DNA of 64,000 nt from NCBI GenBank assembly GCA_035765775.1, contig DASTWV010000057.1, forward strand, positions 27,160 through 91,159, written 5' to 3'. The notes beneath the pieces are model-generated. The model did not search any database, was not told the DNA's origin, and worked only from the letters and a program-made list of their open reading frames with translations. Below are positions 41,219 through 64,000 of this stretch, in pieces. The stretch comes from Actinomycetota bacterium (GTDB lineage: Bacteria; Actinomycetota; CADDZG01; JAHWKV01; JAOPZY01). Numbering within the stretch: position 1 is the first letter of the stretch; every line of letters begins with the position of its first letter. The translations under genes and the position numbers were made by a program.

Positions 41219-41264
41219 CCCAGGAGGTACCTCGTCCACGAAGTATAGGCGCCGGGCGGCCCCG

Positions 41265-48815: not shown

Positions 48816-48840
48816 CGTCGGCGGTGCTGCCGACGCTCGC
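48816..48840. terminator. Bidirectional hairpin between convergent genes (putative terminator)
   Basis: A perfect 9-bp inverted repeat, AGCGTCGGC-ggtgct-GCCGACGCT, lies immediately after the regulator's TAG and 6 nt before the PAAR gene stop. A short T-run (TTT) precedes it on the plus strand. Confidence 0.4.
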
Positions 48841-48845: not shown

Positions 48846-49148
48846 CTAGCCGCCGATCTCCACGGTCGGGAGACCCAAAGCGATCGCCCCGCCGTGCGCG
48901 GTGGTGTCGCCCATCCGGGCGGCGGGCTTGCCGTTGATCAGGACCGTGACCGAGCCCTTCACGATCGTGTCGGGCGGCCCCACGCAGGTGCACATCATGC
49001 CCATCGTGGCCGCCGGGACGCCCCCGATCAACACCGGGGGGCCTGCCGGGGGCCCGGTCACCGGCCCGCCGACGTGCGGTATGGGCGGCGTTCCGGGCGT
49101 GACCATCGGGCAGGTGTGCATGTCGCCGATGCGGGCCGCCGGGGGCAT
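48846..49148 (-). CDS. PAAR-domain spike-tip protein
   Basis: 100 aa from an internal ATG behind the AAGGAG RBS. Sequence MPPAARIGDMHTCPMVTPG...PVLIGGVPAATMGMMCTCVGPPDTIVKGSVTVLINGKPAARMGDTTAHGGAIALGLPTVEIGG carries three PAAR-like motifs (PAARIGD, PAATMG, PAARMGD). Confidence 0.85.
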   Translation of the reverse strand: MPPAARIGDMHTCPMVTPGTPPIPHVGGPVTGPPAGPPVLIGGVPAATMGMMCTCVGPPDTIVKGSVTVLINGKPAARMGDTTAHGGAIALGLPTVEIGG

Positions 49149-49155
49149 GGCTCTC

Positions 49156-51804
49156 CTACTCCTTGGTGAAGAACTCCAGCTCACTGATGGCCACGGAGGT
49201 GCCACCGCTGGACGACGGGTAGACCGACTCGATGGTGATCGTCACCCCCCGGATGCCATGGCCGTGCTCCAGGGTCAGGAGCTGGGCGTCGGGCTGGTTC
49301 TTGAGCGTCAGGGTGTCCGACTGCCCGTTGCTGTAGCTGATGAGCACCGACTTCGGCCGCGGCTCGGCGACAAAGGTGGCGCCAATGCCGCTGAACACGT
49401 TCACCCGGTCCAGGTTGACCGGTTGCTGGGACGTGGAGGAAAAGAGGATGAACATCGAGACCCCCACCCCGAGCTTGGGGCTCGCCTGCGCCTGCCACCA
49501 GGTGTTGGTGTGACCGTCGATGGCCTGCGCCGCCAGGTGCGTGGGCACTGAGGAGGTCGACGAGGCGTTCAACGGCGTCACCAGGTTGTAGTGCGGCGAC
49601 ACCTTCTTGCGGATGCTGGAGGTGACGCTCTTCACCTTGTTCTCGACTGTCTTGCGGTACGGCCCGGCGGCGGCCACGATCCCGGCGACCACCGCCAGGG
49701 CGATTATGATCTTGATCACCTTGCCCACTGCCGAGGGCTTGGGGGCTGTCCGGCTCCCGTGGCCCTGGGCCGGCCGTTCGCCGGCGGCGAGCACCGCCTT
49801 CTTCCGCCCGAAGATGCGCTTCCACCAGGAGACCTTGGGTGTCGGGGCCACGACCGCCGCCTCCAGCGAGGTGCCACAGCGCCGGCAGAACCTGCGGTTG
49901 GGCGTATTGCCCTCACCGCACTGGCCGCAGATGAGGTCGCCCGGAGCGTAGGTGCGGGCCGGTGGCGGCGCCTCCGCAGGGGCGGGCCGGGCTTTGGCGG
50001 CCGCGGGCTTCACCGCCTCGGGCTGGGACACCTGGGGCTTCACCGCCGCGGGGGCCTGGGGCGGCATCGGTCCCCCGTACGGCGAGGGCGACGCGGCGTA
50101 GGGAGGCGCCGGTGCGCCGGGGGCCGGGGCTGGCGTGTCGGCTCGTGACGCGGCCGCGGGGGCCTGCGTCGCCGGAGCCGGTTCCCAGAGGGAACGCTGC
50201 GGCGGCGGAGGGCCCGGTGGTGCGGGAGGAGGTGGAGCTCCCCACAGAGGAGGTCCCGCGGGCGCGGCAGGCGGCGCGGGCGGGCCTGCTGCCGGTGCCG
50301 GGGTGGGTCGGGGGCCGGCCGGCGATGCCCCGGGCGGTGGTGGTGGGGGCGCCTTGGCCACGAGTGCCGCTGCTCGGCGGGCAGCCTCCTGGGCCTTGGC
50401 CGCCTGCTCGGCGGCGAGGCGGGCCTCCTCCTGCGCCCGGCGGGCCTCCTCTTCCGCCTGGGCCTTGGCGGCGGCCTCCGCTTCCGCGCGTCGGGCCTGC
50501 GCCTCCGCTTCCCGGCGGGCGGCCTCATGAGCCTGGGCGGCAGCTGCAGCCCGAGCCTCCTCCTCGAGCCGGGCGGCCTGCTCAGCCTGGCGCGCCTGTT
50601 CCGCCTCGGCAGCCTCCTCGGCCGGCGTTGGGGGTGGCGTGCCGTCCGGTCCAGCCGCCAGGCCAGCCCCGGGCGCCGAGCCGGCGTCGCCGGGCGACGG
50701 GGGCGACCCAAACGACGTGGCGGGCGCAGGCGGCGAGAGAGGCGCAGCAGGCGATACGGCGGGCTCCGACGGCGCCGGCCCAGCAGGCGGGCGGGTCCCC
50801 AGGACGCTCTGCATCCGTGGACGACGTGCCCTGCCGGTTTCCGGCGCCGGGGCGCCCGTCGATGCCGGGGCGTCAGCCGCTGCGGTCGACAGAGATTCGG
50901 CTTCGGCGCCTACCGGTCCTTCCGGACCGGCGGGTGCAGGGGCGTCGTCCGCCAAGGACCGGCGCCCGGGGCGAGCCGGCCCCAACGGAGCGTCGCTCAG
51001 GCTGTAGCGGCCGGACGCGAGCGGTTCTGCCCATGGTTCCACCCGGGCCCGGGCAGGCTCTCCCGCCGGCCCAGGCGGCTCCGCACTCGGCCCAGGAGGC
51101 GCTGCTCCCACCGGTCCGGGTGGCCGTTCGGCGGTCTTCTCACCCCGCGGGCCCGGTCTCGGCCCACCGGTCCCGGCCGCCTCGGCCGGGGGCTCCGGTG
51201 CCACGTCCGGACCCGGTTTCGGTCCCGGCTTGGACGCTTCCTCCGAGCGGGCCGCAGCCGCAGCCGCCTCAGCAGCCGCCTGCATTTGGGCCTGGGCGGC
51301 GTCGGCAGCTTGGGTGGCGTCGGCAGCTTGGGCGGCCTGCCGTCTCGCAGCTTCCTCGGCCTCAGCGGCGGCGTGGCGCCGGGCGGCTTCCTCAGCCTCG
51401 GCCCGTTGGTGCTCCTGCTCGGCGGCCACCCGGGCGGCCTCGGCCGCAGCCCGCCGGGCCTGCTCCTCGGCGGCGGCACGGCGGGCGGCTTCCTCGGCGG
51501 CTCGGCGGGCGGCCTCCTCGGCCTCCGCTGCCCGGCGGCGGGCTTCCTCGGCAGCTCGCTGGGCGGCGAGGCGCTGGCGCTCCTCCTCCCGTTGCCGGAG
51601 CTCGGTGGCCAGGTCGGGCGGCGGGGGGGGCGGGGTCAGCGGAGCCGGCGCCGGGGTGGGTGAAGGCACCGGAGCGGCCTCCGGGGGGAACGCCGGGGCG
51701 GCGGGTGCCTCGCGCTCCCCGGTGAATTCCAGGAAGGAGCCGCAGGAACCGCAGAACTCGTCGCCGTCCTCGTTGCGGTTCCCGCACTGCTTACAGATGA
51801 TCAA
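49156..51804 (-). CDS. Double zinc-ribbon / coiled-coil / single-TM / discoidin (F5/8 type C)-like domain protein embedded in the CIS operon
   Basis: The likely TTG start overlaps the gpI stop, and a GAGGTGG RBS lies 7 nt upstream. The N-terminal zinc ribbon is IICKQCGNRNEDGDEFCGSCGSF. About 500 aa of Ala/Glu/Arg-rich coiled-coil (RRAAEAEEAARRAAEEAARR...) alternate with Pro-rich segments. A second zinc ribbon is LICGQCGEGNTPNRRFCRRCGTS. One TM helix (VIKIIIALAVVAGIVAAAG) follows. The C-terminal ~170 aa, AIDGHTNTWWQAQ....GGTSVAISELEFF, resembles the F5_F8_type_C/NPCBM carbohydrate-binding fold. The upstream ~115 codons of track ORF 49156..52149 are a non-coding extension. Confidence 0.7.
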   Translation of the reverse strand: MIICKQCGNRNEDGDEFCGSCGSFLEFTGEREAPAAPAFPPEAAPVPSPTPAPAPLTPPPPPPDLATELRQREEERQRLAAQRAAEEARRRAAEAEEAARRAAEEAARRAAAEEQARRAAAEAARVAAEQEHQRAEAEEAARRHAAAEAEEAARRQAAQAADATQAADAAQAQMQAAAEAAAAAARSEEASKPGPKPGPDVAPEPPAEAAGTGGPRPGPRGEKTAERPPGPVGAAPPGPSAEPPGPAGEPARARVEPWAEPLASGRYSLSDAPLGPARPGRRSLADDAPAPAGPEGPVGAEAESLSTAAADAPASTGAPAPETGRARRPRMQSVLGTRPPAGPAPSEPAVSPAAPLSPPAPATSFGSPPSPGDAGSAPGAGLAAGPDGTPPPTPAEEAAEAEQARQAEQAARLEEEARAAAAAQAHEAARREAEAQARRAEAEAAAKAQAEEEARRAQEEARLAAEQAAKAQEAARRAAALVAKAPPPPPPGASPAGPRPTPAPAAGPPAPPAAPAGPPLWGAPPPPAPPGPPPPQRSLWEPAPATQAPAAASRADTPAPAPGAPAPPYAASPSPYGGPMPPQAPAAVKPQVSQPEAVKPAAAKARPAPAEAPPPARTYAPGDLICGQCGEGNTPNRRFCRRCGTSLEAAVVAPTPKVSWWKRIFGRKKAVLAAGERPAQGHGSRTAPKPSAVGKVIKIIIALAVVAGIVAAAGPYRKTVENKVKSVTSSIRKKVSPHYNLVTPLNASSTSSVPTHLAAQAIDGHTNTWWQAQASPKLGVGVSMFILFSSTSQQPVNLDRVNVFSGIGATFVAEPRPKSVLISYSNGQSDTLTLKNQPDAQLLTLEHGHGIRGVTITIESVYPSSSGGTSVAISELEFFTKE

Positions 51805-52340
51805 CCGGTGACCACCTCGATCTGGTGGGGGATGTGGGCGGGCTTTCCCGAGGAAACTACCGCTTCGAGCCGTTGGCGATCCACAACTCCTGCATCGGCC
51901 ACCCGAACCCGCACCTTGAGGGACGGCTCGGCGGTGCCCGGGAGATCGCCGTTGGGCACCGGCGACCACGCGGCGGCCCCGCTCTCCTCCACCTCGACGT
52001 CGCCCCCGAAGACAAGGCGCACTAGCCCGACCAACCCCCGCACCGTCCCCCGCTGCGCGTAGAGCGCGGACGCCTCGCCCACCAGCGCCCGCCGCCGCTC
52101 CAGCGACCAGGTCTCGTCCAGCACCACCCCCACCCAGCCGGCCAACCATTCCAAAAAGTCCGGGGGAGCGACGGCGGGGCTCAGGTAGGCGTCGAGGTTG
52201 TCGAGGGCCAGGAACACCGGCGCCAGCACCTCATCCAGCCCGGCGGTGATGCGCTGGGTGAAGCTGTCCTCGTAGTAGATCGGCGGCAGCAGGAACCCCA
52301 GCGGCTGGGGGCTGGCCATACCCCGGACGGCGCCCCTCAT
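51801..52340 (-). CDS. Baseplate protein, P2 gpI-like (Afp12/Pvc12 position)
   Basis: LLPPIYYED...DAYLSPAVAPPDFLEWLAGWVGVVLDETWSLERRRALVGEASALYAQRGT matches the Tail_P2_I family signature (LLPP....LLPWLA....W....R.....HR.KGT). The ATG overlaps the gpJ stop (ATGA). Confidence 0.75.
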   Translation of the reverse strand: MRGAVRGMASPQPLGFLLPPIYYEDSFTQRITAGLDEVLAPVFLALDNLDAYLSPAVAPPDFLEWLAGWVGVVLDETWSLERRRALVGEASALYAQRGTVRGLVGLVRLVFGGDVEVEESGAAAWSPVPNGDLPGTAEPSLKVRVRVADAGVVDRQRLEAVVSSGKPAHIPHQIEVVTG

Positions 52341-54283
52341 GCCGGCTCGACCAGGACCTGGTGCCCGTAGGAGAACACCAGGGCATGGGGGTCGATCGCC
52401 AGGCGCTGCACGGCCTCGCCCCGCCGGCCGGTGATCGGATCCGCCGGGTAGAGGCGGGCCTCGTCCACCAGCTCGACACCCGGCAGGCGCTGCAGGACCG
52501 CGTAGACCTCACCCGCGTGGATGGGGCGCCCGAACGGCCAGCCGGTCCCGTCGGGGCCGCCGCTGATCGGGTGGAAGTACCCGTAGAGGGCTTCGACCGC
52601 CGCCGCCCGCAGGCGGTCCACCGAGGCCGACCGGCGGGCCCGCAGCCGGGCCACCACGGTGATCCCCTGGTAGACCGGGGGCTCCACCACCAGGCGGGAG
52701 CCGATCACCCGGCGCTCGTCGAGGGCCCCCGCGACCCGGGCGAGCGTCTCGTCCGAGGGGACCAGCTGCTCGAACTCCAGGCGCCCGGCCTCCCGCTCGC
52801 TGGCCGCCGGCACCACCAGCACCCGGACGGCCCCGGGATCGGCGCCATTGCCCGCAGGCGCACACCGGACCCGGGCGACCTCGGGCGCCGCCTCGAGGGA
52901 GATCTGCTCGTAGTCCTCGGCGGTCACCGCCCGGTCCCGGGTCCGCAGGGTGAGGGGGCCCCGCAGTTTCGCCGACTCCAGGTCCTCGCCGTCCACCCCG
53001 CCCGAAGCGGGGCGCCGGTTCACCACCGAGCCCACGAAGGGGATCGTGGTGCGCAGCACCGAGATGGCACCCCGAGCGACGTTGCCCCGCCGGCCGCCGC
53101 CGGTGCGGTAGGAGCGCACCCGCAGGACGGCGCCGTCGCCCGGGGCGGCCCCGTACCGGCGCAGGGACCCGTCGGGCTCCCGGACGGCGGGGCCGAAGGC
53201 GATCTCGCCGCTGGCGGCGTCCAGCTGGAAGTGGCGGTCGTGCGGGCCGCTGTGGGCGAAGCCGTCCACCGGAGCCCACTCCTCCCACCCCTCGCCCTCG
53301 CTCACCTCGAGGATCACGGGGGCCTCCCCCGGGACCACCGGGGCGTTGCGCAGCGGGTAGCGCTGGCCGGCGCCCCCGGTGGCGGTGGCCACCACCTCGC
53401 CCTCGATGATCTCGGCGTTCACCGCCACCGTCGTCCCGCCGATGGTGGACGCCGCCACCCGGCTGATGAACGGCGGGGCGCTGTAGACCGGCTGGCCCTC
53501 CTCGGCGTCGGTGACCCGGCAGCGCAGCCAGCCCGCCCGTCGGCCGGCGATCTGGGAGGCCTGGTGGGAGGCGGGGACGTGCAGCACCACCTCGCCGTCC
53601 TTGTTCAGGCCCCCGGTGGTGTCCCGCTCGAGCTCGCAGACTGCCCAGCCCCGGCCATCCCATGCCTCCCAGGCAATCGGGGGGTTCCGGGGGTCGACAC
53701 CGACGCCCTCGATCCGGCAGCCCAGCTCCAGGAGGACCGCACACGACGGCACCGGGTTGGACAGGCCGATCAGGAGGGCGTCGCCCGGCTTGGGGGGCGC
53801 ATCGAAGCACGGGAAGCCATCCCCGATCTCCAGCCGGTCGGTCTGGTCGCCGGCCTGTGGGCCGAGGGCCGTGGCGACGCGAGACCGGGAGCACGGAACA
53901 ATGGCGAGGTCCGAGAGCACCGTGAACGACACCGCCTCCTCGGTGGGCGTGCGCAGCGTCGATACCTCGGTCCCGGCGGGGACGTCGATGGTGACCTCCT
54001 GGGTGGCGGACAGCCAGAAGGTCACGTCCACCTTGGCGGCGGTGGGTGGGAACAGCCGGATCCCCATGAGGTCCAGGAACTTGATGTAGAGCCGGTCGGG
54101 CACCCGGTTCAGCCGGAACAGCAGCTGGTCGGTCATGAAGGCGAACGTCTCGATCAGCGTCACGCCCGGGTCGGAAACGTTGTGGTCGGTCCACTCCGGG
54201 CAGCGCTGCTGGACCAGGCGCTTGGCCTCGTCGACCAGGTCCTGGAACCGGCGATCATCCAGGTTCGGCGCCGGCAGCGTCAT
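52337..54283 (-). CDS. Baseplate J-like protein (gpJ / Afp11 homologue)
   Basis: 648 aa. The N-terminal LDDRRFQDLVDEAKRLV....WTDHNVSDPGVTLIETFAFMTDQLLFRLNRVP is the conserved Baseplate_J N-terminus. Confidence 0.85.
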   Translation of the reverse strand: MTLPAPNLDDRRFQDLVDEAKRLVQQRCPEWTDHNVSDPGVTLIETFAFMTDQLLFRLNRVPDRLYIKFLDLMGIRLFPPTAAKVDVTFWLSATQEVTIDVPAGTEVSTLRTPTEEAVSFTVLSDLAIVPCSRSRVATALGPQAGDQTDRLEIGDGFPCFDAPPKPGDALLIGLSNPVPSCAVLLELGCRIEGVGVDPRNPPIAWEAWDGRGWAVCELERDTTGGLNKDGEVVLHVPASHQASQIAGRRAGWLRCRVTDAEEGQPVYSAPPFISRVAASTIGGTTVAVNAEIIEGEVVATATGGAGQRYPLRNAPVVPGEAPVILEVSEGEGWEEWAPVDGFAHSGPHDRHFQLDAASGEIAFGPAVREPDGSLRRYGAAPGDGAVLRVRSYRTGGGRRGNVARGAISVLRTTIPFVGSVVNRRPASGGVDGEDLESAKLRGPLTLRTRDRAVTAEDYEQISLEAAPEVARVRCAPAGNGADPGAVRVLVVPAASEREAGRLEFEQLVPSDETLARVAGALDERRVIGSRLVVEPPVYQGITVVARLRARRSASVDRLRAAAVEALYGYFHPISGGPDGTGWPFGRPIHAGEVYAVLQRLPGVELVDEARLYPADPITGRRGEAVQRLAIDPHALVFSYGHQVLVEPA

Positions 54284-54702
54284 TCCCCGACCCCCGCTTC
54301 CGGCAGGGTCTCGCTCGGGATCACGTAGAAGGGGAACACCAGGTTGCGGGGGTCATTGGTGCCGCGGATCGAGTACTGCACGTCGATGTAGACCGTCGAG
54401 GCATCGGCCGGGTCGGTGGTCACCGCGATCCCTTCCACATCCACCCGGGGCTCCCAGCGCTCGATCGACCGGCGCACCTCGTAGGCGATCCGCCCGGCGG
54501 TGGACCCGGTGACGGCGGCGAAGACGAAGTCGTGGATGGCGCACCCGAACTCGGGGCGCATCGGCCGCTCGCCGTAGGCGGTCCCGATGATGAGCCGGAT
54601 GGCCTCCTCGACCTCCTGTTCGCGCCCGACGAGGGCGATGCCCCCGCTGGCGCTGGTGCGCACCGGGAAGGCCCAGCCCTTGCCGACGAAGTCCTCGGTC
54701 AC
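54280..54702 (-). CDS. gp25/GPW-like baseplate wedge protein (lysozyme-like fold)
   Basis: VTEDFVGKGWAFPVRTSASGGIALVGREQEVEEAIRLIIGTAYGERPMRPEFGCAIHDFVFAAV....IERWEPRV belongs to the GPW_gp25 family. The GTG start follows a GAGGGAG RBS, and the track ORF extends further upstream into noise. Confidence 0.85.
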   Translation of the reverse strand: MTEDFVGKGWAFPVRTSASGGIALVGREQEVEEAIRLIIGTAYGERPMRPEFGCAIHDFVFAAVTGSTAGRIAYEVRRSIERWEPRVDVEGIAVTTDPADASTVYIDVQYSIRGTNDPRNLVFPFYVIPSETLPEAGVGE

Positions 54703-54728
54703 GTGCGCTCCCTCATCGTTGGCCCACC

Positions 54729-56597
54729 TCAGTTGATCTTGACGATGGCGCCCTGGACCTGGACCATGGCGCCGCCTTTGAGCTCGGCAGTGGCGTTGGC
54801 GTTGATGCTGATCGTGGCGCCCTGCACCGTGACCTGGGCGGTTCCGTTCGCCTTCAGCTGCACCCCCTTGATCTCGACGTTGCCGCCGCCGCCGTCGATC
54901 GACACCCCGCTGTCGGCCTTGATGCTCACCTGGCGGCCCTTGAGGTCCAGGTTGCCCGCTGCGGTGATCTTGATGTCGCCCGGGGCCCCCTTGCACTCGA
55001 TCTCGATGGTCCCGTCGGCATTGATGGTCAGCTTCTGGTTGTTCTTCGACAGCTTCACGATGTACTTGCTGTCGCCGGTCTGCAGCAGGATCCCGTCGTC
55101 GGTCCCCTCCTTCTCGGTGAAGGAGAGGCGGTGGTGGGTGCGGCTGAAGAAGTCCCGGCGCTGGACCTTGCCCGAGGCATCGTCGATGGTCGGCACCGAG
55201 CCGGTCGGCGGCTTGTCGACGCCGTTGTAGAGCCCGGCCAGCACGTACGGCCGGCGGCTGTCGCCCTGCTCGAAGGCCACCAGCACCTCGTCGCCCACCT
55301 CGGGCACCAGCACGGCCCCGTACCCGTTGCCCGCCGAGATCTGGGCGACCCGCGCCCAGTCGCTTTCGTAGGTATCGTCCAGCCAGGGGAACTTCAGCTT
55401 GACCCGGCACTGGTTCTCCGGGTCCTTGGCATTGGTCACGATCGCCTGCACCACCCCGGGGATGGGTTTCCGGGACGCGGAACCGCTGCCCTTGCCCGCT
55501 GCCCCGCCGGAAGCGAGGCCCAGCAGCGTCGAGTTCTGCTTGCCGCTCACGGTGAAAAAGGTGGTGTAGCCGCCGTCGGGGTCATAGTGGTGGCGGGCGG
55601 AGGTCAGGCGGTACTTACCGTCGAACGGCTTGCCCACCTGCCCGAGGCTGACGGCCGCCCCCGCCTTCAGGTCGGTGTTGCCCAGGGCCACGCCGTCGAA
55701 GGTGGCGGAGGCGCTGCCGATGTCCTCGGCCCGGGCCGCGGCGGCGGCCTCGCACTCGGCCTGCGTGGCGAACGGGATGCTGGCGGCGAGGTGCGTCGGC
55801 GAGCCGAATTTGCCGCCCAGGTCCGCCGGGGTGACATCGAGATGGCTGGCGGAGCTCTTCGCCGGCGACGTCCCCACTATCTCCCGCTTCTGCTTGGGGT
55901 CCCAGCTCCGGACCTTGACCTCCGTGACCTGCTCGGCGGCGGAGACCGCGCAGCGGAAGCTCAGCAGGTTCTCCCCCAGGGTGAGCTGCAACGGGTTGGT
56001 GGAGGCAAGCGTGCCGGGGCCCGGAGCGCCCGACGCCGACTGCGGCTTGCGGAAGTCGAGCTTGCCCTTGGTGACCATCAGCTCGTAGCCCACCTCGGCC
56101 GACAGCCCACCGAGGAAGTCCCAGTCCGAGCAGTTGAACTGCGTGATCACGTCGTGCACGACCGATGTCGAGTCGACGGTCCCCAGCGACAGTCCATTGC
56201 GCTGGGCCACCTTGCCCGCCACGTCCGAGTAGCTCATGTTCTTGTAGGCCGCGGTGGTCCGCCCCCGGAACAAGCGGTGGGACGTGTCGAGTCCGCGGAC
56301 CACCGAGAGCGTCCCCAGCGGGTCGTGCTCGGCCTCCAGGGCCGTGATCTCGGCGTCCTCGATCAGGACCGTTCCCGAGGGGCTGGCATCCGACACCACC
56401 TTGATGGTCACCTTGCCGCCGATCTGGATCCCGGACGAGGCCGCAAACACCACCCGGCCAGGGTCCCGGAAGGTGAGCACGAAGGCGTCCGGGAGGTTGA
56501 GGCTGGTCTCCACGTAGGCGGACACCAGCAGCTCCTCGAGCGACGCGCTGAGCGGGGAGCCTGCGAGGCTCACCGACAGCGAGTGGGTGGGGTTCAT
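54729..56597 (-). CDS. VgrG/gpD-gp5-like central spike protein
   Basis: 622 aa from an internal ATG overlapping the upstream stop (ATGA). An N-terminal Phage_GPD-like region and a middle OB/gp5-like region (GVVQAIVTNAKDPENQCRVKLKFPWLDDTYESDWARVAQISAGNGYGAVLVPEVGDEVLVAFEQGDSRRPYVLAGLYNG) are present. The C-terminus is a beta-helix of repeats (KLTINADGTIEIECKG...DIKITAAGNLDLKGRQVSIKADSGVSIDGGGGNVEIKG...). Confidence 0.85.
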   Translation of the reverse strand: MNPTHSLSVSLAGSPLSASLEELLVSAYVETSLNLPDAFVLTFRDPGRVVFAASSGIQIGGKVTIKVVSDASPSGTVLIEDAEITALEAEHDPLGTLSVVRGLDTSHRLFRGRTTAAYKNMSYSDVAGKVAQRNGLSLGTVDSTSVVHDVITQFNCSDWDFLGGLSAEVGYELMVTKGKLDFRKPQSASGAPGPGTLASTNPLQLTLGENLLSFRCAVSAAEQVTEVKVRSWDPKQKREIVGTSPAKSSASHLDVTPADLGGKFGSPTHLAASIPFATQAECEAAAAARAEDIGSASATFDGVALGNTDLKAGAAVSLGQVGKPFDGKYRLTSARHHYDPDGGYTTFFTVSGKQNSTLLGLASGGAAGKGSGSASRKPIPGVVQAIVTNAKDPENQCRVKLKFPWLDDTYESDWARVAQISAGNGYGAVLVPEVGDEVLVAFEQGDSRRPYVLAGLYNGVDKPPTGSVPTIDDASGKVQRRDFFSRTHHRLSFTEKEGTDDGILLQTGDSKYIVKLSKNNQKLTINADGTIEIECKGAPGDIKITAAGNLDLKGRQVSIKADSGVSIDGGGGNVEIKGVQLKANGTAQVTVQGATISINANATAELKGGAMVQVQGAIVKIN

Positions 56598-57310: not shown

Positions 57311-57313
57311 GGC

Positions 57314-57754
57314 CTACGCCGCCTCGAGGGTGAAGCCGTTGTGGGCGATCTCGAGCGATTCCTCCGCCACCTTGGGCGACTCCGCCGAGAACGAGGGCCC
57401 GCTCCACTTCACCGGGATGACCCCGGTCAGGTGCCAGGTCACCAGGCGGTTGCCCTGCGGGGTGAGCGCCACGATCTCGGCCGAGGTGCGCTTGACCCCC
57501 TTCGCCAGCCCGGCCAGCCAGGAGGCCACCTTGATGCTCTCCGGGCCGATCGGGCGGGTGAAGCGCACGTTGGAGAAGGTGATGCGCACCGGCAGCTTCC
57601 AGACGTAGCCGTTGTTGCCCCCCTCGACCCGCTCCTCGGTGACGACGTCCATCGACAGCCCGTCGCAGGTGGTGAACTCGCCCAGGTCCACGCCGTCGAT
57701 GCGCACGTGGAAGTAGAGGGCGACTGCTGGGTCGGTGTCGGTGGCGCCGGGCAC
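57314..57754 (-). CDS. Tail tube protein (T4 gp19 / Afp1-5 family)
   Basis: 146 aa. ALYFHVRIDGVDLGEFTTCDGLSMDVVTEE....VWKLPVRITFSNVRFTRP is characteristic of the Phage_T4_gp19 tube family. Confidence 0.85.
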   Translation of the reverse strand: MPGATDTDPAVALYFHVRIDGVDLGEFTTCDGLSMDVVTEERVEGGNNGYVWKLPVRITFSNVRFTRPIGPESIKVASWLAGLAKGVKRTSAEIVALTPQGNRLVTWHLTGVIPVKWSGPSFSAESPKVAEESLEIAHNGFTLEAA

Positions 57755-57770
57755 GTCGGTCGGTTTCCTT

Positions 57771-60700
57771 TCAGGTGAGGTCGGTCAGGAGTCCCGCCCG
57801 CTCCCGGTCGTGCCAGAGCTCCCGGCGCAGGTAGGGCCGGAGGCGGGGGTAGAGGCGGCGGGCGAGCTCATCGATGTCGTCGGGCAGGGCTTTGTTCGGC
57901 TCCACCGGGGCCGTCTCGGGGCCGGCGGTGGCCGCAGATGCCGCCGGGCTGGTTGCCGGTGAACGTGGGGCCGGGGAGGTTCTGGGCGGGCTGGCCATGG
58001 GGGACGGGGTGCCGGTGGCGGTTTCTGTCGGCGCTCGCTGCACCATGCGGAACACCTGCTCCGCCGTGGGGCGGGTGGGAGCAGGAGATAGCCGCAGGAT
58101 GGGGGCGGGAAGCGGGGAGCGGGACACCAGGGCATCCATGGAAGCCCTACCCCCCGGCGCCGACCGGGGCTGGGACGACGGGGCGGCCGGCGTTGCCGGG
58201 GCGGCCGGCGTTGCCGGGGCGGCCGGGCCGTGGCCGGGGAGAGATCGTTGCAGGGCGCGGACCCCGAGGAGCGGAGTCGGTGCCTCGGGCAGCCTGGGGG
58301 CCGCCCACGGGGTGGCGGTCGGCATCGGGAGGGCCGGCAGGTCGGCGCCGGTGGGGTCTGGGTGCGCGGGGCCCGGAGGCGGCGAATTGGGCAGAACCCC
58401 GGTGGCGTCGGCCTCACCTCGCCCCCGGAGGGCGGTGGCGATCGGGCGCTCGGGGAGCGGGGCGGTATGGCCGGCCGGGACCCGGTGCGCGGGGCCCGGA
58501 GGCGAACTGGACAACAAAAGCCGTGAGTTCTGAGGGTAATGGTGCGCGGAAACCTCGGGGCTGGGCGCGACGCCGGCGCTGGGCAGCGCCGTGGCGATCG
58601 GGCGCTCGGGCAGCGGGGCGATGTGCTCGACCGGGGATGGGGACCGCTCTGGGAGCGCCGGAAGGTTGACCAAGTGGGATTCGGTGGGTGAATGGGGCAA
58701 CAAGACCGGTGGATGCTGCGCGTGACGCTGCGCGGAAACCTCAGGACGGGCCGGCGTTGCGGCAGCGCCTTCGTCCGTTGGGCGGGGCAAGGCGGTGGCG
58801 ATGGGACGCTCCGCCAGCGATGAGATCTCCCAGCTGCGTGGCGCCGAAGGTTCGGCGAATGTGCCCGGCAGCCGAGAAGCACCCTCCTTGCTCAGTTCGA
58901 GCCCAGTCCCGGGCAGCTCGGCCGGCACGGGGGGGCTTTGGTGCTGGGAGTCTGCGGGCAGCGCGGTGGCGATCGGGCGCTCCGTGAGCGGCGCAACCCC
59001 GGTGGCCGGGACGGCCTGCGCCGGGTCCGTCTGCGCCGCGTCGGTCTGCGCCGGGAGGGCGGCCGCCGGCCCCCCGGGGACAACCGGGAGCGTCGGCTCC
59101 GGGATTCTGTGTACACCGGGGTGCTCCATATGGCGCTGCGTGTACACAGAATCCGGGGTTGGCGACAATCGCTGGGCGGTTCGCTCGGGAGCTGCGCCCC
59201 GGGCGGTCAGCGGCGGGGCAGGCGGCGACGCGGACGGGACACTCTCGGGCAGCCGGGCGGGGACGACCGCCCCGCGCATCGCCCCGGCGGGGTTTCCGGC
59301 GCCCTCGCTGAGCGGCGGAGCAGCCTCGGGCAACGAGGTCGAGATCGGTCGGTCGGCCAGCGGCGGTGCGGCGGGTGAGCTGACCGATGGATCGGGGCCT
59401 TCCGTGATCCGCTGCGGTGCCGGTTCCGGGGTCTGCGACGAGAGAGGTGCCGGCGGCCACGATGTAATGGGCACATCCTCCGGGATCCGGACGGCGGGTG
59501 CCTCGCCACGCTCCGCTGGAACGGTGCCGGCGCTCCCATCCGGCGGCAGGGGCGGTGCCACCTCGGGCAGCGCGGTCTCGATCGGTCGTTCGGCCAGGGG
59601 GGGTGTGACCAGCGCTCTGGTGGCCGCCGAAGAAGGAGCGTCGACGAGCTGCTGCACCGGCGCCTCCGGCTTGGACGCGAGGTCCGCCGGAGGAGCACCG
59701 GCCTTGCCCGGCAACGGTGCCCCCAGCCCGAGGCCCAGCTGGCGGATGGTCCGTCGCTTCACGGCCACCGGAGCGGTCCGGGCCACAGCCGCTGCTCCGG
59801 GTGCCACGACGGGCGAAGAGGGCGATGCCGGACCCGGTGCGGCCGGGGAGCGCGGCGGGGCTATAGGCGGACCCGAAGGATCCGAGGGCCCCGGCAACGG
59901 CGAGGCAATCGGCGGAGCCGCCGAGGCAGGGCTGCCCGCGGCGGCAGGGCCAGACGGAACGGCGGGGGGAGCCGAGCGGACCACCGGGGCCGCCGGGAGA
60001 CGCTGGATCGGTGGCCCGGACGGGACGGGAGTGACCGGTCCGCCGTTCCGGGATGCGGCCGGCCGGGGGGCCGCGGCCGGAGGCACCGGCCGGGGCGGAA
60101 GCTGGTCGGGTGGCGACACCAGGTCCGCCGGCCCCTCGGCGGCGGGGGGCAACGTCTCGGCTCCTAGCGTCGGCGCCTCCATCGGCCGTCCTTGGGGTGC
60201 CATGGAGGGAACGGGCGGTTCGGCGACCGGTTCGACGGGCAGCCCAGCGACTGTCTGCGCCACCGGCCCCGCAGGGTCTGCAGAGGGAACACCGACCGGG
60301 GCAACGCGGGGCAAAGGGATGGTCGCGGCAGGGGCTGCCACCGACCGCGAGACGGACGGCATCTCCACCGCCGGGAGCTCCCGGGGCACCAGGCCTTTCG
60401 GGGCTGCCTGGAGGAGCGGCCGGATCGGCTTGGAAACTGGGACCGCGGGACTGGCCCCCCTCGGGGCCGCGCCGGCGGAGTCCCGCCCGCTGAGCTGGCC
60501 CGGATCCGGAACCGGGTCGATCTCCCGGGCCGGCGCGCCCGCCGACTGCTGCTGCACCTGAGGCTCCGCCCCGGTCTCGACTAGCGACCCCGGCACCACC
60601 GCATCCGATCCCAGCACCACAACCGGCCCCGGCACCGGCACCGGCGCCCCAACTGCCGGGGGAACGGGGGCAGCGGGCTCGCTCCACCGGATCGCCGGGG

Positions 60701-61148
60701 GGTCGGCCGCCCGGAACACGGTCCGCCAGGTCCGCTCCCGCCCAGGCCCTCCGGCCCGCCGCCGGGGAGCACGGGGAGCACGTTGGGCACGGGGAGCACG
60801 GGGGGCAAGGGGCGGGGAAGCTACCTGACGCTGCACGGGTGCCGGGGCCACCACAGAGGTCAGCCCGCTCACCAGGCCTGCCGGCGCTTCCTCCGACACC
60901 CCGTGCGCCAGCGGCGCCAGGAAGGGGTAGGGCGCCGTCTGGGCGGCAAGGCCGTCCTTGAAACTCTGGACCCCCACCACGGTGGGCATCGCACCGAGGA
61001 CCGGCTCGAACCCGCGGGCGGCCCGCCACTCCCCGGCCTCGGGGCGCGCAGAGGCGGGCGGCGTCACCGGCGGGGCGACGGGAACCGACTCAGGCCGCGC
61101 ACCCTGACCGGCACCGCGGCCAGCCCGGGCACCGAAACCGCCCCGCAC
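57771..61148 (-). CDS. Pro/Ala-rich tandem-repeat protein in tape-measure position (putative length determinant)
   Basis: 1125 aa with high GC3 throughout. There are at least 7 divergent ~55-60-aa repeats sharing the core P-L-(A/T)-(E/D)-R-P-I-(A/S/E)-T-(A/S)-L-P. The core is conserved at amino-acid level despite nucleotide divergence. The distinct charged C-terminus is DIDELARRLYPRLRPYLRRELWHDRERAGLLTDLT. The gene is tightly packed between the two tube genes (7-nt and 16-nt gaps). Confidence 0.6.
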   Translation of the reverse strand: MRGGFGARAGRGAGQGARPESVPVAPPVTPPASARPEAGEWRAARGFEPVLGAMPTVVGVQSFKDGLAAQTAPYPFLAPLAHGVSEEAPAGLVSGLTSVVAPAPVQRQVASPPLAPRAPRAQRAPRAPRRRAGGPGRERTWRTVFRAADPPAIRWSEPAAPVPPAVGAPVPVPGPVVVLGSDAVVPGSLVETGAEPQVQQQSAGAPAREIDPVPDPGQLSGRDSAGAAPRGASPAVPVSKPIRPLLQAAPKGLVPRELPAVEMPSVSRSVAAPAATIPLPRVAPVGVPSADPAGPVAQTVAGLPVEPVAEPPVPSMAPQGRPMEAPTLGAETLPPAAEGPADLVSPPDQLPPRPVPPAAAPRPAASRNGGPVTPVPSGPPIQRLPAAPVVRSAPPAVPSGPAAAGSPASAAPPIASPLPGPSDPSGPPIAPPRSPAAPGPASPSSPVVAPGAAAVARTAPVAVKRRTIRQLGLGLGAPLPGKAGAPPADLASKPEAPVQQLVDAPSSAATRALVTPPLAERPIETALPEVAPPLPPDGSAGTVPAERGEAPAVRIPEDVPITSWPPAPLSSQTPEPAPQRITEGPDPSVSSPAAPPLADRPISTSLPEAAPPLSEGAGNPAGAMRGAVVPARLPESVPSASPPAPPLTARGAAPERTAQRLSPTPDSVYTQRHMEHPGVHRIPEPTLPVVPGGPAAALPAQTDAAQTDPAQAVPATGVAPLTERPIATALPADSQHQSPPVPAELPGTGLELSKEGASRLPGTFAEPSAPRSWEISSLAERPIATALPRPTDEGAAATPARPEVSAQRHAQHPPVLLPHSPTESHLVNLPALPERSPSPVEHIAPLPERPIATALPSAGVAPSPEVSAHHYPQNSRLLLSSSPPGPAHRVPAGHTAPLPERPIATALRGRGEADATGVLPNSPPPGPAHPDPTGADLPALPMPTATPWAAPRLPEAPTPLLGVRALQRSLPGHGPAAPATPAAPATPAAPSSQPRSAPGGRASMDALVSRSPLPAPILRLSPAPTRPTAEQVFRMVQRAPTETATGTPSPMASPPRTSPAPRSPATSPAASAATAGPETAPVEPNKALPDDIDELARRLYPRLRPYLRRELWHDRERAGLLTDLT
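58430..59620. repeat. Tandem array of degenerate ~165-190-bp repeats (coding; inside the Pro-rich ORF)
   Basis: Recurring core GGCGGTGGCGATCGGGCGCTC(G/C)G(G/C)GAGCGG and variants at ~58433, 58596, 58790, 58959, 59338 and 59571 on the plus strand. The reverse complement encodes ...ERPIATA.... Confidence 0.6.
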
Positions 61149-61154
61149 CGGGGC

Positions 61155-61313
61155 TCACCTACCCCGGTCCTGTTCCTCGTTCAGCCGTCCGATCTCCTTC
61201 ACGAAGCGCTGCCGGACGGGATGCTCGAGGTCCAGGATGTCGTCGAGGCTCCAGTGGAAGTGGTAGGCGACGTACGCGACCTCCCGGTAGAGCCGGTCTG
61301 GCGCGTACGTCAC
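61155..61313 (-). CDS. Small ORF (52 aa) in -1 frame overlapping the preceding gene's stop
   Basis: The GTG start overlaps the TGA of ORF 61310..61783 (tcGTGAcg). It encodes VTYAPDRLYREVAYVAYHFHWSLDDILDLEHPVRQRFVKEIGRLNEEQDRGR, which is protein-like and has high GC3, and it ends 7 nt before the Pro-rich gene. It may be an independent small protein or a -1 frameshift extension. Confidence 0.3.
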   Translation of the reverse strand: MTYAPDRLYREVAYVAYHFHWSLDDILDLEHPVRQRFVKEIGRLNEEQDRGR

Positions 61314-61783
61314 GATTCCCCCAGGCGACCACCGGCCACATCGACCGAGAAGTTGTGCTCGCAGGCCGGGCAGGTCACCGCGGCCCGGGTGTGGCCCTCT
61401 TCGTTGATCCGCCGGTAGAGGTCCTGGAGGAACGCCACGTCGGAGGCGAACATGTTCTCCAGCACCCCACCGTGGATGTCCTCCACCGTCCCCAGCCGGG
61501 TGATCACCCGGGCCAGCAGCACGATGGTCAGGTAGGCAGGGTTCTCCTTGACCCGGTCGTCGTGCAGCGGCAAGAGCTCGTCCCGGGCGGTCGCCAGGCG
61601 CATGGCGCCGTTGCGGTGCACCGTGCCCGACCGGTCGACATAGCCCCGGGGGAGCACGAAATCGAACTCGGTCTGGAGCTTGCGCGGCTCCTCCGCGCGC
61701 CCCGCCCCGCGCCCGGAACCCTCGGAGGGCGCGTCGTCCTCGCTCCTGCCCGCCTCCAGGACGGGCGCCAGTCCCCGGCGCAT
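61310..61783 (-). CDS. Hypothetical CIS-associated protein (possible tape-measure/tail assembly chaperone)
   Basis: <=157 aa. Protein-like segments include EFDFVLPRGYVDRSGTVHRNGAMRLATARDELLPLHDDRVKENPAYLTIVLLARVITRLGTVEDIHGGVLENMFASDVAFLQDLYRRINEEGH, plus CxxC (TCPACEH). The start overlaps the tube gene stop by 1 nt, although the true start may lie further downstream. Confidence 0.45.
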   Translation of the reverse strand: MRRGLAPVLEAGRSEDDAPSEGSGRGAGRAEEPRKLQTEFDFVLPRGYVDRSGTVHRNGAMRLATARDELLPLHDDRVKENPAYLTIVLLARVITRLGTVEDIHGGVLENMFASDVAFLQDLYRRINEEGHTRAAVTCPACEHNFSVDVAGGRLGES

Positions 61784-62226
61784 CAGGCGGGTGCGCAGCC
61801 TTCGTGGGCGATCGTGAGCTTCTCGGTGAGGATGCTGGTGTCACCGGCTTTCAACGTCCCCACCTCCAGCACCTTGGGCCAGCAGTTGGTCAGCTTGTAG
61901 CGCATGATCTCGGCACCCTGGTAGTCGTAGACAATCACCGAGCCGCCCTTCCGGGAGACGGGCATGTTGCCCTGGTGAGCGTCCTTGACCCAGTCCTGGA
62001 AGGTCTTGTCCGACGTCAGGCCCCGGGTGATGCTGATCTCGCCGATCTTCGGCCGGCCGGGGAGCTGCTTGTTGACGTACTTGCCGTCTTTGGTGTTGGC
62101 CTTGAGCTCGATGACGTCCTGCTCCATCTTCACGCCCGACAGCTCCTGGATCTGCTTGATCTGGATGCCGTCGAATTCGAACCCGAACGACCAGCCAACA
62201 CTCGCATCCTCATCGGGCAGGGCCAT
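61783..62226 (-). CDS. Tail tube protein (T4 gp19 / Afp1-family), second paralogue
   Basis: 147 aa. WSFGFEFDGIQIKQIQELSGVKMEQDVIELK....YKLTNCWPKVLEVGTLKAGDTSILTEKLTIAHEG fits the Phage_T4_gp19 family. Confidence 0.85.
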   Translation of the reverse strand: MALPDEDASVGWSFGFEFDGIQIKQIQELSGVKMEQDVIELKANTKDGKYVNKQLPGRPKIGEISITRGLTSDKTFQDWVKDAHQGNMPVSRKGGSVIVYDYQGAEIMRYKLTNCWPKVLEVGTLKAGDTSILTEKLTIAHEGCAPA

Positions 62227-62274
62227 AGGACCTGTACCCCCTTTCGTTCAGTAGCAGGCAGTAAGCAGGGACGG

Positions 62275-63804
62275 TTATTCGGTCAGCGATGCTCCGCCGG
62301 AGAACTGCGAGAGCCGGAAGACCACGAACTCAGCGGGCTTAACCGGGGCAACGCCGATCTCGCAGATCACCATCCCGGCGTCGATCGACTCCGCCGGGTT
62401 GGTCTCGTCGTCGCACTTCACGTAGTACGCCTGGTCGGGGTTCAGACCGAACAGGGCGCCCTTGCGCCACTCGTTCACCAGGAAGGTGGCGATGGTGCGG
62501 CGCATCTTGGCCCACAGCGCATAGTCGTTCGGCTCGAAAACGGCCCACTGGGTGCCGCCCAGGATGGACTCCTCCAGGTAGTTGAACAGCCGCCGGATGT
62601 TGAGGTACCGCCACGCCGGGTCGCTGGACAGGGTGCGGGCGCCCCACACCCGCGTGCCCCGGCCGGGGAAGTTGCGGATGCAGTTGATGCCGTGGGGGTT
62701 CAGGAGGTCGTGCTCGCTCTTGGTGATGTTCAACTCCAGGGTGATCGCCCCCCGGACCACCTCGTTGGCAGGTGCCTTGTGCACGCCCCGGGTGTCGTCG
62801 TTGCGCCCCCAGATGCCCGCCATGTGCCCGCTGGGCGGGACGAAGATGTTCTGCCCCGAGGCGGGGTCGAAGACCTTGATCCACGGCCAGTACAGGGCGG
62901 CGTACTTGGAGTCGTAGCCCGCCTTGTCCACCCGCCACTCCCGGATCTGCTGGGCGTTCAGCCCGGGCGGGGAGTCGAGGATGGCCACCCGGTCGCCCAT
63001 CAACTCGCAGTGGGCGATCATCGCCAGCTGGACCGCCTTCAGCCCCTCCTGGTCGATCATGCCCTTCTGGTAGGCGGCCATGAGGTCGGGCACGCACACC
63101 ATCGTGATCGGGTCGATGGCCTCCAGGCCCCCGAAGCCGGTCCGGTCCGACGCGTCGCCTACGTAGTCGTCCGGCGCCAGGCGGGCCGGGGCGGGCGGGC
63201 TGCCCCCGCCGGTCAGGCTCACGGTGGACTTGACGGGCTTGTCGAGCGCGGCGCCCGGCGTGGCCTCCTCGATGCGGATCACTTTGGAGACGGCGTTCAC
63301 CATGGCCACCACGTTCTGGCGACCCTTCTTGGTGCTGGCCTTGTCGAACTCCTCGACCTGTTGGCCGTCGCGGCGGATGATGAGCTTGAACTGGTCCTCG
63401 GTGGCGCCCTCCCCGGGGTCGGCCACCTCGACCGAGATGTTGTTGCCCGCCGCCCCCGGCTCCAGCGCCCGGATGACGTAGCCGCCCAGCCGGGCGTCGG
63501 CCCCGCTGGCCAACTCGCCCCGCGGCCCGGAGCCGTTGCCGTCGCCGCCCACCCGGACGACGTAGCACGCTCCCCCGCCGTTGAGGAAGTACCCGTACAC
63601 CGCGTGGGCGAGGTAGGTGCCCTCGACGAACTCGCCGAAGGTGTTCGTGAACTGGCCCCAGTTGGTGCAGAGCGTCGGCTCGTTCAAGGGGCCCTGGGCA
63701 GCAAGGCCGACGAACGCGGCCACCGCCGTCCCCACGCCTTCGATCGGCCGGGATCCGGAGTCCACCTCCTCGACATAGACGCCGGGGGACAGGTACTGGG
63801 GCAT
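62275..63804 (-). CDS. Contractile tail sheath protein
   Basis: 509 aa. The N-terminal MPQYLSPGVYVEEVDSG is the canonical sheath start. A C-terminal conserved sheath domain follows (WPWIKVFDP...GINCIRNFPGRGTRVWGARTL). A strong GAGGAGGAGG RBS lies upstream. Confidence 0.9.
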   Translation of the reverse strand: MPQYLSPGVYVEEVDSGSRPIEGVGTAVAAFVGLAAQGPLNEPTLCTNWGQFTNTFGEFVEGTYLAHAVYGYFLNGGGACYVVRVGGDGNGSGPRGELASGADARLGGYVIRALEPGAAGNNISVEVADPGEGATEDQFKLIIRRDGQQVEEFDKASTKKGRQNVVAMVNAVSKVIRIEEATPGAALDKPVKSTVSLTGGGSPPAPARLAPDDYVGDASDRTGFGGLEAIDPITMVCVPDLMAAYQKGMIDQEGLKAVQLAMIAHCELMGDRVAILDSPPGLNAQQIREWRVDKAGYDSKYAALYWPWIKVFDPASGQNIFVPPSGHMAGIWGRNDDTRGVHKAPANEVVRGAITLELNITKSEHDLLNPHGINCIRNFPGRGTRVWGARTLSSDPAWRYLNIRRLFNYLEESILGGTQWAVFEPNDYALWAKMRRTIATFLVNEWRKGALFGLNPDQAYYVKCDDETNPAESIDAGMVICEIGVAPVKPAEFVVFRLSQFSGGASLTE

Positions 63805-63945
63805 AGGGCCTCCTCCTCGCTACGAGGTCGATGTGCAGGATCTGGCGTCCAGCGTCCGCCTTTCGGGAGGCGGCAACAACGGCCAAGCGGACCGTTCTCG
63901 GGGAAGGCCTGGCTGCCCTCTTGGGTTGCCTGAAGAGGCAGACCC

Positions 63946-64000
63946 CTACTCGCTGCCCTCTTTCTCTTCCTCTTCTTCCTCCTGGCGCTGCACGGGAGCG
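63946..64000 (-). CDS. 3' end of an upstream gene with poly-Glu C-terminus (partial)
   Basis: The minus-strand frame ends ...APVQRQEEEEEEKEGSE* at ~63946 and continues beyond the window end. It is 140 bp upstream of the sheath gene across a hairpin-containing spacer. Confidence 0.25.
   Translation of the reverse strand, partial: APVQRQEEEEEEKEGSE

Follow-up and report, generated by a model that had tools for sequence, protein, structure and literature searches.

A stretch of 64,000 nucleotides from the chromosome of an uncultured member of the Actinomycetota (contig DASTWV010000057.1 of assembly GCA_035765775.1), hereafter the window, carries on its minus strand an operon that, judged from its sequence, very likely encodes the structural part of a class IId contractile injection system (CIS), the Streptomyces type represented by the system of Streptomyces coelicolor (CIS-Sc). 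The locus is not a novel kind of system but a fresh example of a described class. Imaging, structure determination and genetic analysis of class IId have already been carried out in Streptomyces, and one more CIS locus of this kind contributes little. What merits following up is a conserved disordered protein encoded in the tape-measure slot of the operon.

RESULTS

Parts and gene order of a Streptomyces-type CIS

We compared the concatenated proteins of the window with all PDB chains using phmmer. Streptomyces CIS chains ranked first for every core part except PAAR. The sheath matched the CIS-Sc sheath (8bky/9gtp) with an E value of 5e-216, gpJ matched 9gtp_1K (Cis11) at 2.8e-244 and the spike matched 9gtr_q (Cis8) at 5.6e-111, followed by gp25 (9gtp_V, Cis9; 1.2e-52), the LysM hub (9gtp_P, Cis7; 2.5e-44), the tube initiator (9gtp_a, Cis1b; 1.3e-41), gpI (9gtp_E, Cis12; 2.9e-41) and the inner tube (CIS-Sc tube chain 8bl4_v, Cis1a; 4.4e-26). 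Afp, PVC, AlgoCIS, the cyanobacterial system, pyocin and T4 all scored far below. The initial annotation of this DNA had listed a sheath, tube, LysM hub, spike, gp25, gpJ, gpI, a zinc-ribbon/transmembrane/discoidin protein and PAAR, and had likened the locus to the cytoplasmic CIS of Streptomyces. Pfam assigns all of these parts as they had been read (Table 1), profile searches place the core open reading frames (ORFs) in tail sheath, tube and baseplate families, and the likeness to Streptomyces is borne out both by the PDB matches and by shared synteny.

A tblastn search of gpJ against plasmids recovered class IId clusters on Streptomyces, Kitasatospora and Deinococcus replicons. The cluster of Streptomyces sp. 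NBC_01324 (NZ_CP108387.1) starts with a LuxR gene, a hypothetical gene, a DUF4255 cap and an ATP-binding protein, continues through sheath, tube, a zinc-ribbon protein, DUF6760, a 1020-aa hypothetical protein, tube, LysM and VgrG, and ends with PAAR, gp25, baseplate J, a tail protein and another zinc-ribbon protein. From the sheath to the CisA-like gene the window follows the order of NBC_01324 and of S. cattleya pSCAT, the position of PAAR excepted. Identities to NBC_01324 are 61% for the sheath, 59% for gpJ, 60% for gp25 and 71% for a 157-aa protein, and sheath and gpJ are 56 to 61% identical to the two Streptomyces plasmid clusters (NBC_01324 and pSCAT). Both plasmid clusters share with the window the chaperone-like zinc-ribbon gene, DUF6760 and a Pro/Ala/Gly-rich ORF (906 to 1020 aa) with the same C-terminal motif. 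They differ in that their PAAR gene lies between VgrG and gp25, their CisA-like proteins are only 320 to 369 aa long and the middle of their long ORF has no detectable similarity to ours. The regulators differ as well, being of STAND/SARP type here and of LuxR type in the Streptomyces plasmid cluster.

A wider locus scan, which took one genome per species, fetched 80 loci, the window's own genome lying outside that set. Among these, the highest sheath identity was 78%, from Nitriliruptorales and Actinomycetota metagenome-assembled genomes (MAGs), and the same gene order was found in those related MAG loci that were of sufficient length, with Acidimicrobiia, Chloroflexota and Dormibacterota represented. 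The synteny is common to about 60 related loci (Actinomycetota, Chloroflexota and Dormibacterota) and to metagenome contigs; closely related Chloroflexota MAG loci share it at 67 to 71% sheath identity to the window. The spread of class IId into Chloroflexota and Deinococcota has already been published, and there too the systems reside in the cytoplasm (PMC12998442). The Roseiflexus and Deinococcota systems of that study belong to the same lineage as the window. Roseiflexus, however, was reported to be without close cisA homologues (PMC12998442), whereas gpI is followed, in the window and in many of the Chloroflexota MAG loci, by at least an ORF with a CisA-type N-terminal zinc ribbon.

Class IId has been published as having neither an Afp13 fibre nor a typical Afp14 tape measure (PMC10066040), and the same is found in this operon. 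In comparison with CIS-Sc (SCO4242-SCO4260; PDB 9gtp, 9gtr, 9gts and 8bky), the nine modelled structural proteins are matched, apart from the cap, which falls out of the window. Both also lack an Afp13 fibre and anything recognisable as an Afp14 tape measure, and both place a CisA-type gene right after cis12. They differ in the CisA-like protein, which has 882 aa and a linker of ~600 aa here against 468 aa in S. coelicolor, and in PAAR, which is the last gene here and for which S. coelicolor has no counterpart; identities are ~30 to 60%. With Afp and PVC (class I) the window shares homology across the core baseplate, tube and sheath proteins (E values from 1e-5 to 1e-53) and, as the initial annotation had noted, the Afp7-8-9-11-12 order. 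The class I systems, in contrast, have three sheath paralogues, an Afp13 fibre and an alpha-helical Afp14 encoded after the baseplate genes, whereas the operon has one sheath gene, no fibre and its long ORF ahead of the baseplate genes.

The initial annotation had further described the system as non-canonical and poorly characterised on account of three slots. All three were seen as described, but two of them are published hallmarks of class IId (PMC10020575, PMC12237407, PMC10066040) and the description as strange did not survive. The zinc-ribbon protein that takes the slot of a fibre is a member of the CisA family, itself a class IId hallmark, and the Pro-rich protein in the tape-measure slot is no peculiarity, recurring in most related loci as detailed below. 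Of the three, only the terminal PAAR is specific to the locus, and it is a minor trait, PAAR being known in some clusters and absent in others. The earlier interpretation was thus partly supported, right about the kind of machine and wrong about its strangeness. The terminal position of PAAR and the doubled length of the CisA-like protein are the only traits particular to this locus.

A conserved Pro/Ala-rich protein in the tape-measure slot

The longest ORF of the operon (1125 codons) sits between the chaperone-like gene and the tube initiator, where a tape measure would be expected. Its product is 21% Pro and 18% Ala, carries six PL(A/T/P)ERPI(A/E/S)T(A/S)LP repeats and has no transmembrane segment, and searches of Pfam, NCBIfam and PHROGs gave no match. 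Its conserved parts are an N-terminal module at residues ~36 to 165 and a C-terminal helix motif at residues ~1088 to 1123.

In related loci the slot from DUF6760 to the tube initiator is likewise filled by a single long ORF. In 52 of the 64 related loci the equivalent protein is 563 to 1373 aa long and rich in Pro, Ala, Gly and Ser. These 52 proteins end in LDELARxLYxRIRxRLRxELxxDRERAG and share, in frame, the N-terminal module WPFGR ... AW..LPPIQR ... PLGH ... AP.GLV, and in two near relatives the first ~170 residues are kept before the sequences diverge with in-frame insertions and deletions. Conserved ends in one frame around a variable middle of 2 to 4 kb indicate a real long protein and not a chance frame, and its occurrence in 52 of 64 loci makes it a feature of the class. 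By a base-frequency estimate, ~12 stops would be expected in 1125 codons at this base composition, and ~6 in the 550-codon linker of the CisA-like gene; neither of these long low-complexity frames is due to chance.

The 52 slot proteins contain 276 [VIL]QR tripeptides, compared to 15.6 expected from shuffled sequences (an ∼18-fold enrichment). Examples are PPIQRTAG and TPVVQRVDG, and the neighbouring eCIS_core proteins have LQRAAGN at the N terminus and PVQRE at the C terminus. The tripeptide might serve these proteins as a common motif for docking or loading.

When the N-terminal module was searched with phmmer against 1.8 billion representatives, just 18 weak matches came back, mostly fragments. 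A profile of the C-terminal motif found nothing meaningful in the PDB, and the proteins that it did return were all of 32 to 76 aa, such as a 49-aa protein linked to one related locus (L002 in our numbering of the loci). Gene callers thus mostly annotate this family as C-terminal stubs of 32 to 76 aa, and this leaves the long form largely invisible in databases. In these low-complexity regions the third codon position is no richer in GC than the first, so callers based on third-position GC can pick the wrong frame or strand. We speculate that S. coelicolor sco4249, annotated as divergent from sco4248, is possibly such a mis-call. Annotation as stubs may be the reason that the field reports no tape measure.

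The location of the long ORF is that of a tape measure, but its product is Pro/Ala-rich and not alpha-helical or coiled-coil, and it matches no tape-measure profile. With the chaperone-like gene upstream, the local order becomes that of a classical myophage: sheath, tube, chaperone(s), tape measure and tube initiator/hub. From this position and from weak homology, we propose with moderate confidence that the long ORF encodes a tape-measure equivalent or a scaffold of the tube lumen.

The S. davawensis CIS effector Tme (PMC11126660) resembles the long ORF in being the largest ORF, largely disordered and encoded immediately upstream of the baseplate genes. Tme, however, has DUF4157, transmembrane helices, coiled coils and a C-terminal nuclease, none of which is present in the window protein, and the long ORF also has no counterpart to the transmembrane helices, DUF4157 and enzyme domains of the tape-measure-related effector Sle1. 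The S. davawensis system was placed by the Tme authors in a clade distant from CIS-Sc (PMC11126660). In one metagenomic locus (L086, 721-2343) the slot ORF encodes 540 aa and carries an eCIS_core (DUF4157) domain, which links the slot to Tme-type effectors.

On Deinococcus grandis plasmid pDEGR-1 (L094, 3219-6998), a tube domain and a Pro/Ala-rich region of ~1100 aa are annotated together as one ORF of 1259 aa directly following the sheath, and the Pro/Ala-rich region ends in a related motif, DLDQVAREVYARLRERLSQELRRLN. This cluster is rearranged, having no chaperone or DUF6760 genes in between and containing sheath-like pseudogene fragments.

Two small genes ahead of the long ORF

The 157-aa protein has no match in Pfam or NCBIfam. 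All 50 of the 50 homologues examined nevertheless match phrog_508, "tail assembly chaperone" (best E value, 8.8e-7). The protein is 60 to 80% identical across phyla, has more than 8000 database relatives and carries a C-terminal H..CxxCxH knuckle; its AlphaFold model is poor (predicted local distance difference test [pLDDT] score of 54) and too low in confidence for a fold search. Its location following the tube gene makes it the probable counterpart of Sco4251.

The GTG start of the DUF6760 gene overlaps the stop of the chaperone-like gene (GTGA, 61310-61313) in the −1 frame, and this arrangement is kept in related loci. Sequence inspection of the junction found no canonical −1 slippery heptamer. 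The overlap recalls the G/GT chaperone pair of phage tails. Position and weak homology suggest that the 157-aa and DUF6760 proteins act as tail assembly chaperones.

A CisA-family membrane protein downstream of gpI

The gene directly downstream of gpI (cis12), which it overlaps by TTGA, encodes a protein of 882 aa with a Zn_Ribbon_1 domain at residues 4 to 23, a DZR zinc ribbon at 626 to 648, a transmembrane segment at ~696 to 714 and a NADase_transloc domain at 748 to 878, as placed by Pfam and a transmembrane scan. The Pfam NADase_transloc (F5/8 type C) match is weak, while NCBIfam NADase_discoid is matched at 57 bits against a cut-off of 38. The linker of ~600 aa between the two ribbons consists of Ala/Glu/Arg-rich stretches (residues 66 to 190 and 393 to 485) between Pro-rich ones, and the one strong hydrophobic segment of the protein lies between the second zinc ribbon and the discoidin domain. 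AlphaFold modelled residues 619 to 882 at a mean pLDDT of 88, with blocks from residue 121 mostly at 93 to 98, and Foldseek matched the model to CBM32/F5/8-type C modules (E value of 9e-9; target-normalised TM score of 0.73 to 0.79). At the level of the model, the predicted C-terminal discoidin/CBM32 fold is confirmed.

SCO4242 was described in 2023 by Vladimirov et al. and Casu et al. as a conserved membrane protein encoded just after the baseplate genes; in 2025 Casu et al. gave it the name CisA, and it was found to be required for firing (PMC10020575, PMC12237407). Casu et al. reported that CisA is bitopic, is not in the purified particle structure and is needed for contraction in situ (PMC12237407). 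The three domains of the window protein are those of the published HHpred map of Sco4242 (zinc ribbon at 1 to 31, a second one at 219 to 246 just before the transmembrane segment, and a NADase_NGA-like domain at 319 to 464; Vladimirov et al.), the comparison with Sco4242 itself being made through that map. The C-terminal 300 residues align at 29% identity (tblastn, 1e-9) with the pSCAT ORF following gpI, which from its position we take to be the S. cattleya Sco4242 homologue (AEW99545.1) of Vladimirov et al. A hidden Markov model (HMM) built from 72 full-length relatives gave E values of 2.3e-37 for the S. cattleya protein and 2.8e-34 for that of NBC_01324, and it matched none of the decoys (the other proteins of the window). 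The three matching domains, the family HMM and the CBM32/discoidin fold place the predicted protein in the CisA (SCO4242) family.

Relatives of this protein are 420 to 460 aa long, or 320 to 369 aa on the two Streptomyces plasmids, against the 882 aa encoded in the window. The frame is uninterrupted and the architecture in all relatives is that of a single protein, indicating that the CisA-like sequence is one gene. On the Logan contig L081, which covers only 3' sequence that the window already contains, a metagenome gene caller had divided this stretch between two ORFs lying in different frames.

A displaced PAAR gene

PAAR matched 9rce_c ("SalCis10") at 3.4e-35. Cis10, the PAAR protein, is found in S. 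venezuelae and not in S. coelicolor (Casu et al.). About half of the related loci have a gene of ~400 nt between VgrG and gp25, detectably PAAR in 11 of them, and the other half have none there. In the window the VgrG/gp25 junction measures only 26 nt, and PAAR instead follows the CisA-like gene with its own AAGGAG ribosome-binding site. PAAR is optional within the class, and its terminal position here is a local, minor rearrangement.

Genes expected upstream of the sheath and a convergent regulator

The ORF cut by the edge of the window contributes its last 18 codons, which translate to APVQRQEEEEEEKEGSE*. In L089, the closest relative with flanking sequence (its 157-aa protein is ~90% identical), a 189-aa eCIS_core protein is encoded directly upstream of the sheath and ends in ...AAPVQREEEKEEESSE*; the eCIS_core C termini of L002 and L003 are also similar to the window-edge tail. 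From these 18 residues, the edge ORF is probably the tail of an eCIS_core (DUF4157, Sle2-like) gene.

The order upstream of the sheath in L089 is AAA ATPase, eCIS_core and sheath. In L002 it is STAND/BTAD regulator, LuxR, eCIS_core (DUF4157), Pvc16_N cap, WHD+AAA ATPase and sheath, and cap and AAA+ ATPase genes precede the sheath in the relatives L002, L082 and L089. The likeness of the edge tail and the upstream genes of the relatives together point to hallmark genes just past position 64000, where the cap, AAA+ ATPase and DUF4157 genes very probably lie. The initial annotation had guessed that genes of the ATPase, cap and effector type might sit there, which fits the closest relatives, L089 and L002.

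Downstream of the operon lies a convergent gene for a STAND/SARP protein, the N-terminal half of which is MalT-like in NCBIfam. Homologues of this regulator stand beside CIS clusters in at least nine loci (L002, L008, L009, L026, L055, L065, L067, L071 and L085), in some of them in the same convergent position; the L002 homologue is 45% identical over its full length. Given these neighbours, the gene is likely a dedicated regulator, which we count in the system and which probably regulates the cluster. An 8-bp GC-rich inverted repeat without a T run is found at ~48815-48836, between the regulator stop and the PAAR stop.

Operon layout and surroundings

Thirteen minus-strand ORFs, all in the same direction, are packed within 48846-63804 in the ORF listing of the window (Table 1). 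The initial annotation had described translational coupling with start/stop overlaps at nearly every junction. The compact 13-gene arrangement stands, but the overlaps were overstated: they occur at 6 of the 12 junctions, the remaining 6 being gaps of 3 to 48 nt. The overlapping pairs are tube/157-aa ORF (by 1 nt), the 157-aa ORF/DUF6760 pair (GTGA), LysM hub/VgrG spike, gp25/gpJ and gpJ/gpI (all three ATGA) and gpI/CisA-like gene (TTGA). The operon is compact even with fewer overlaps than had been claimed. On the tube initiator, NCBIfam CIS5_fam scored 5.5e-16, under the family cut-off.

Table 1. Genes of the CIS operon and its immediate neighbours, in order of transcription of the operon, with window coordinates
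Feature	Coordinates	Strand	Evidence
Upstream gene 3' end, probable eCIS_core (DUF4157, Sle2-like)	63946..64000	-	18-residue tail likeness
Contractile sheath (Cis2), 509 aa	62275..63804	-	Phage_sheath_1 4e-24 + Phage_sheath_1C
Inner tube (Cis1a), 147 aa	61783..62226	-	Phage_T4_gp19 1e-30
Tail-assembly-chaperone-like protein, 157 aa	61310..61783	-	phrog_508 via homologues; no Pfam match
DUF6760 small protein, 52 aa	61155..61313	-	DUF6760 1.6e-13
Pro/Ala-rich low-complexity protein in the tape-measure slot, 1125 aa	57771..61148	-	no Pfam match
Tube initiator (Cis1b / Cis5-like), 146 aa	57314..57754	-	T4_gp19 6e-29
Baseplate hub / tube initiator with LysM (Cis7), 238 aa	56594..57310	-	CIS_tube 5e-26 + LysM
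VgrG-like spike (Cis8), 622 aa	54729..56597	-	Phage_base_V 1.5e-27
gp25-like sheath initiator (Cis9), 140 aa	54280..54702	-	GPW_gp25 1e-23
Baseplate wedge gpJ (Cis11), 648 aa	52337..54283	-	Baseplate_J 3e-18
Baseplate wedge gpI (Cis12), 179 aa	51801..52340	-	Tail_P2_I 9e-14
Predicted CisA-family bitopic membrane protein, 882 aa	49156..51804	-	zinc ribbons, transmembrane segment, discoidin-like domain
PAAR spike tip (Cis10), 100 aa, final operon gene	48846..49148	-	PAAR_motif 1.3e-22
Convergent STAND-ATPase / SARP-type regulator, 996 aa	45825..48815	+	Pfam Trans_reg_C + BTAD

The remainder of the window encodes aspartyl- and threonyl-tRNA synthetases, an ABC-F protein, three tRNAs, polysaccharide genes, an extracytoplasmic function (ECF) sigma factor and an insertion sequence (IS) transposase; the synthetases, the ABC-F protein and the tRNAs agree with the housekeeping setting that had been described. 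The tRNAs, tRNA-Glu(CTC), tRNA-Gln(CTG) and tRNA-Val(CAC), lie at 15558-15727 and 41147-41219 (minus strand) and are consistent with a chromosomal setting; an Rfam scan of the window returned tRNAs only. Promoter and terminator scans found nothing exceeding background. An IS-type DDE transposase (DUF772 + DDE_Tnp_1) beside a DUF222 gene at 26052-29505 (minus strand), ~20 kb from the operon, is the sole mobile-element signature in the window. An N6/N4 DNA methylase (8020-8997, plus strand), the ECF-type sigma factor with DUF6596 (9896-11212, minus strand) and a 628-aa Methyltransf_28 protein (12129-14015, minus strand) are unrelated to the CIS.

DISCUSSION

By homology, the sheath would polymerise around the tube on a baseplate made of the tube initiator, the LysM hub, a VgrG spike capped by PAAR, the gp25 sheath initiator and the gpJ/gpI wedges. 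There is no tail fibre gene, and the slot of the fibre is taken by the CisA-family bitopic protein, with its zinc-ribbon N terminus in the cytoplasm and its predicted glycan-binding discoidin domain on the extracytoplasmic side. By analogy with CIS-Sc and with the Roseiflexus and Deinococcota work, particles would assemble free in the cytoplasm, and, following what has been published on CisA and CIS-Sc function (PMC12237407, PMC10066040, PMC10020575), the CisA-like protein would recruit them to the membrane through the baseplate and license firing; in Streptomyces the zinc-ribbon tether is predicted to contact Cis11. Firing may then free cargo and kill or lyse the producer under stress, as in CIS-Sc. 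Position and weak homology further suggest that the 157-aa and DUF6760 chaperones would act on the 1125-aa protein, which would probably lie in the tube lumen, anchored by its conserved termini.

As an alternative, the particles might be truly extracellular, released by lysis to attack other cells, with the discoidin protein as the receptor-binding element replacing a fibre. Sco4242 was initially put forward as a fibre by Vladimirov et al., who detected it in purified particles, the C-terminal domain has a glycan-binding CBM32 fold, and the relatives carry the extracellular CIS (eCIS) hallmarks eCIS_core, Pvc16_N cap and AAA ATPase. We nevertheless consider this improbable: the strong single transmembrane segment between zinc ribbon and discoidin domain is expected of a membrane anchor and not of a fibre carried on the particle, CisA spans the membrane and is missing from the particle structure, and every class IId system imaged so far is cytoplasmic (PMC10066040, PMC12998442).

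Readings as a defective-prophage tail module, as an R-type tailocin and as a type VI secretion system (T6SS) were rejected on gene content and best matches. It is true that all core genes have phage tail homologues, that sheath, tube, chaperone, long ORF, hub, spike and wedges follow the myophage order, and that the IS transposase and an HNH-like DUF222 gene lie 20 kb off. A prophage or tailocin origin is still very unlikely, as the initial annotation had held in calling the locus a CIS: searches with Pfam and other profiles found no capsid, portal, terminase, integrase, lysis cassette or fibre gene in the other 49 kb of the window, which cover the 3' side of the operon, the relatives have eCIS-specific genes upstream, the cluster is kept as a unit across phyla beside a dedicated regulator, and the best matches are CIS structures and not phages. 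Least likely of all, and barely credible, is a membrane-anchored T6SS-like machine that fires outward repeatedly, since, although VgrG and PAAR are present and a membrane-protein gene adjoins the baseplate genes, the sheath is of the Phage_sheath_1 type and not TssB/TssC, the window has no TssJLM or ClpV homologues, T6SS families match only VgrG and PAAR, and Casu et al. explicitly set CIS-Sc apart from T6SS.

Several points weigh against the class IId assignment and the roles proposed with it. The label "IId" comes from best matches and synteny and not from a phylogeny, identity to the Streptomyces proteins is only 31 to 61% for most parts, and the window itself contains no cap, ATPase or effector genes. 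The CisA-like protein has double the length of CisA, and over the region that both share the identity is only ~29%. The cytoplasmic site, the recruitment to the membrane and the cell death are borrowed from Streptomyces, and the MAG host may not be filamentous. As for the long ORF, its role is read from its position, and no tape measure was reported by those who solved the CIS-Sc structure (PMC12237407).

We tentatively propose that the Pro/Ala-rich family is the missing tape measure or scaffold of class IId, a disordered ruler anchored at its termini and handled by a chaperone pair; we rate this somewhat below an even chance. CIS-Sc particles are uniform in length, and published particle lengths are 233 nm for S. 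coelicolor, 217 nm for Roseiflexus, 238 nm for C. chliarophilus and 365 nm for D. aquatilis.

The assignment of the 882-aa protein to the CisA family means that the CisA-type anchor reaches beyond Streptomyces into uncultured Actinomycetota and probably Chloroflexota, and that its predicted cytoplasmic tether can double in length. If the disordered ruler is real, it would overturn the published view that class IId has no tape measure and would explain how class IId particles reach a uniform length.

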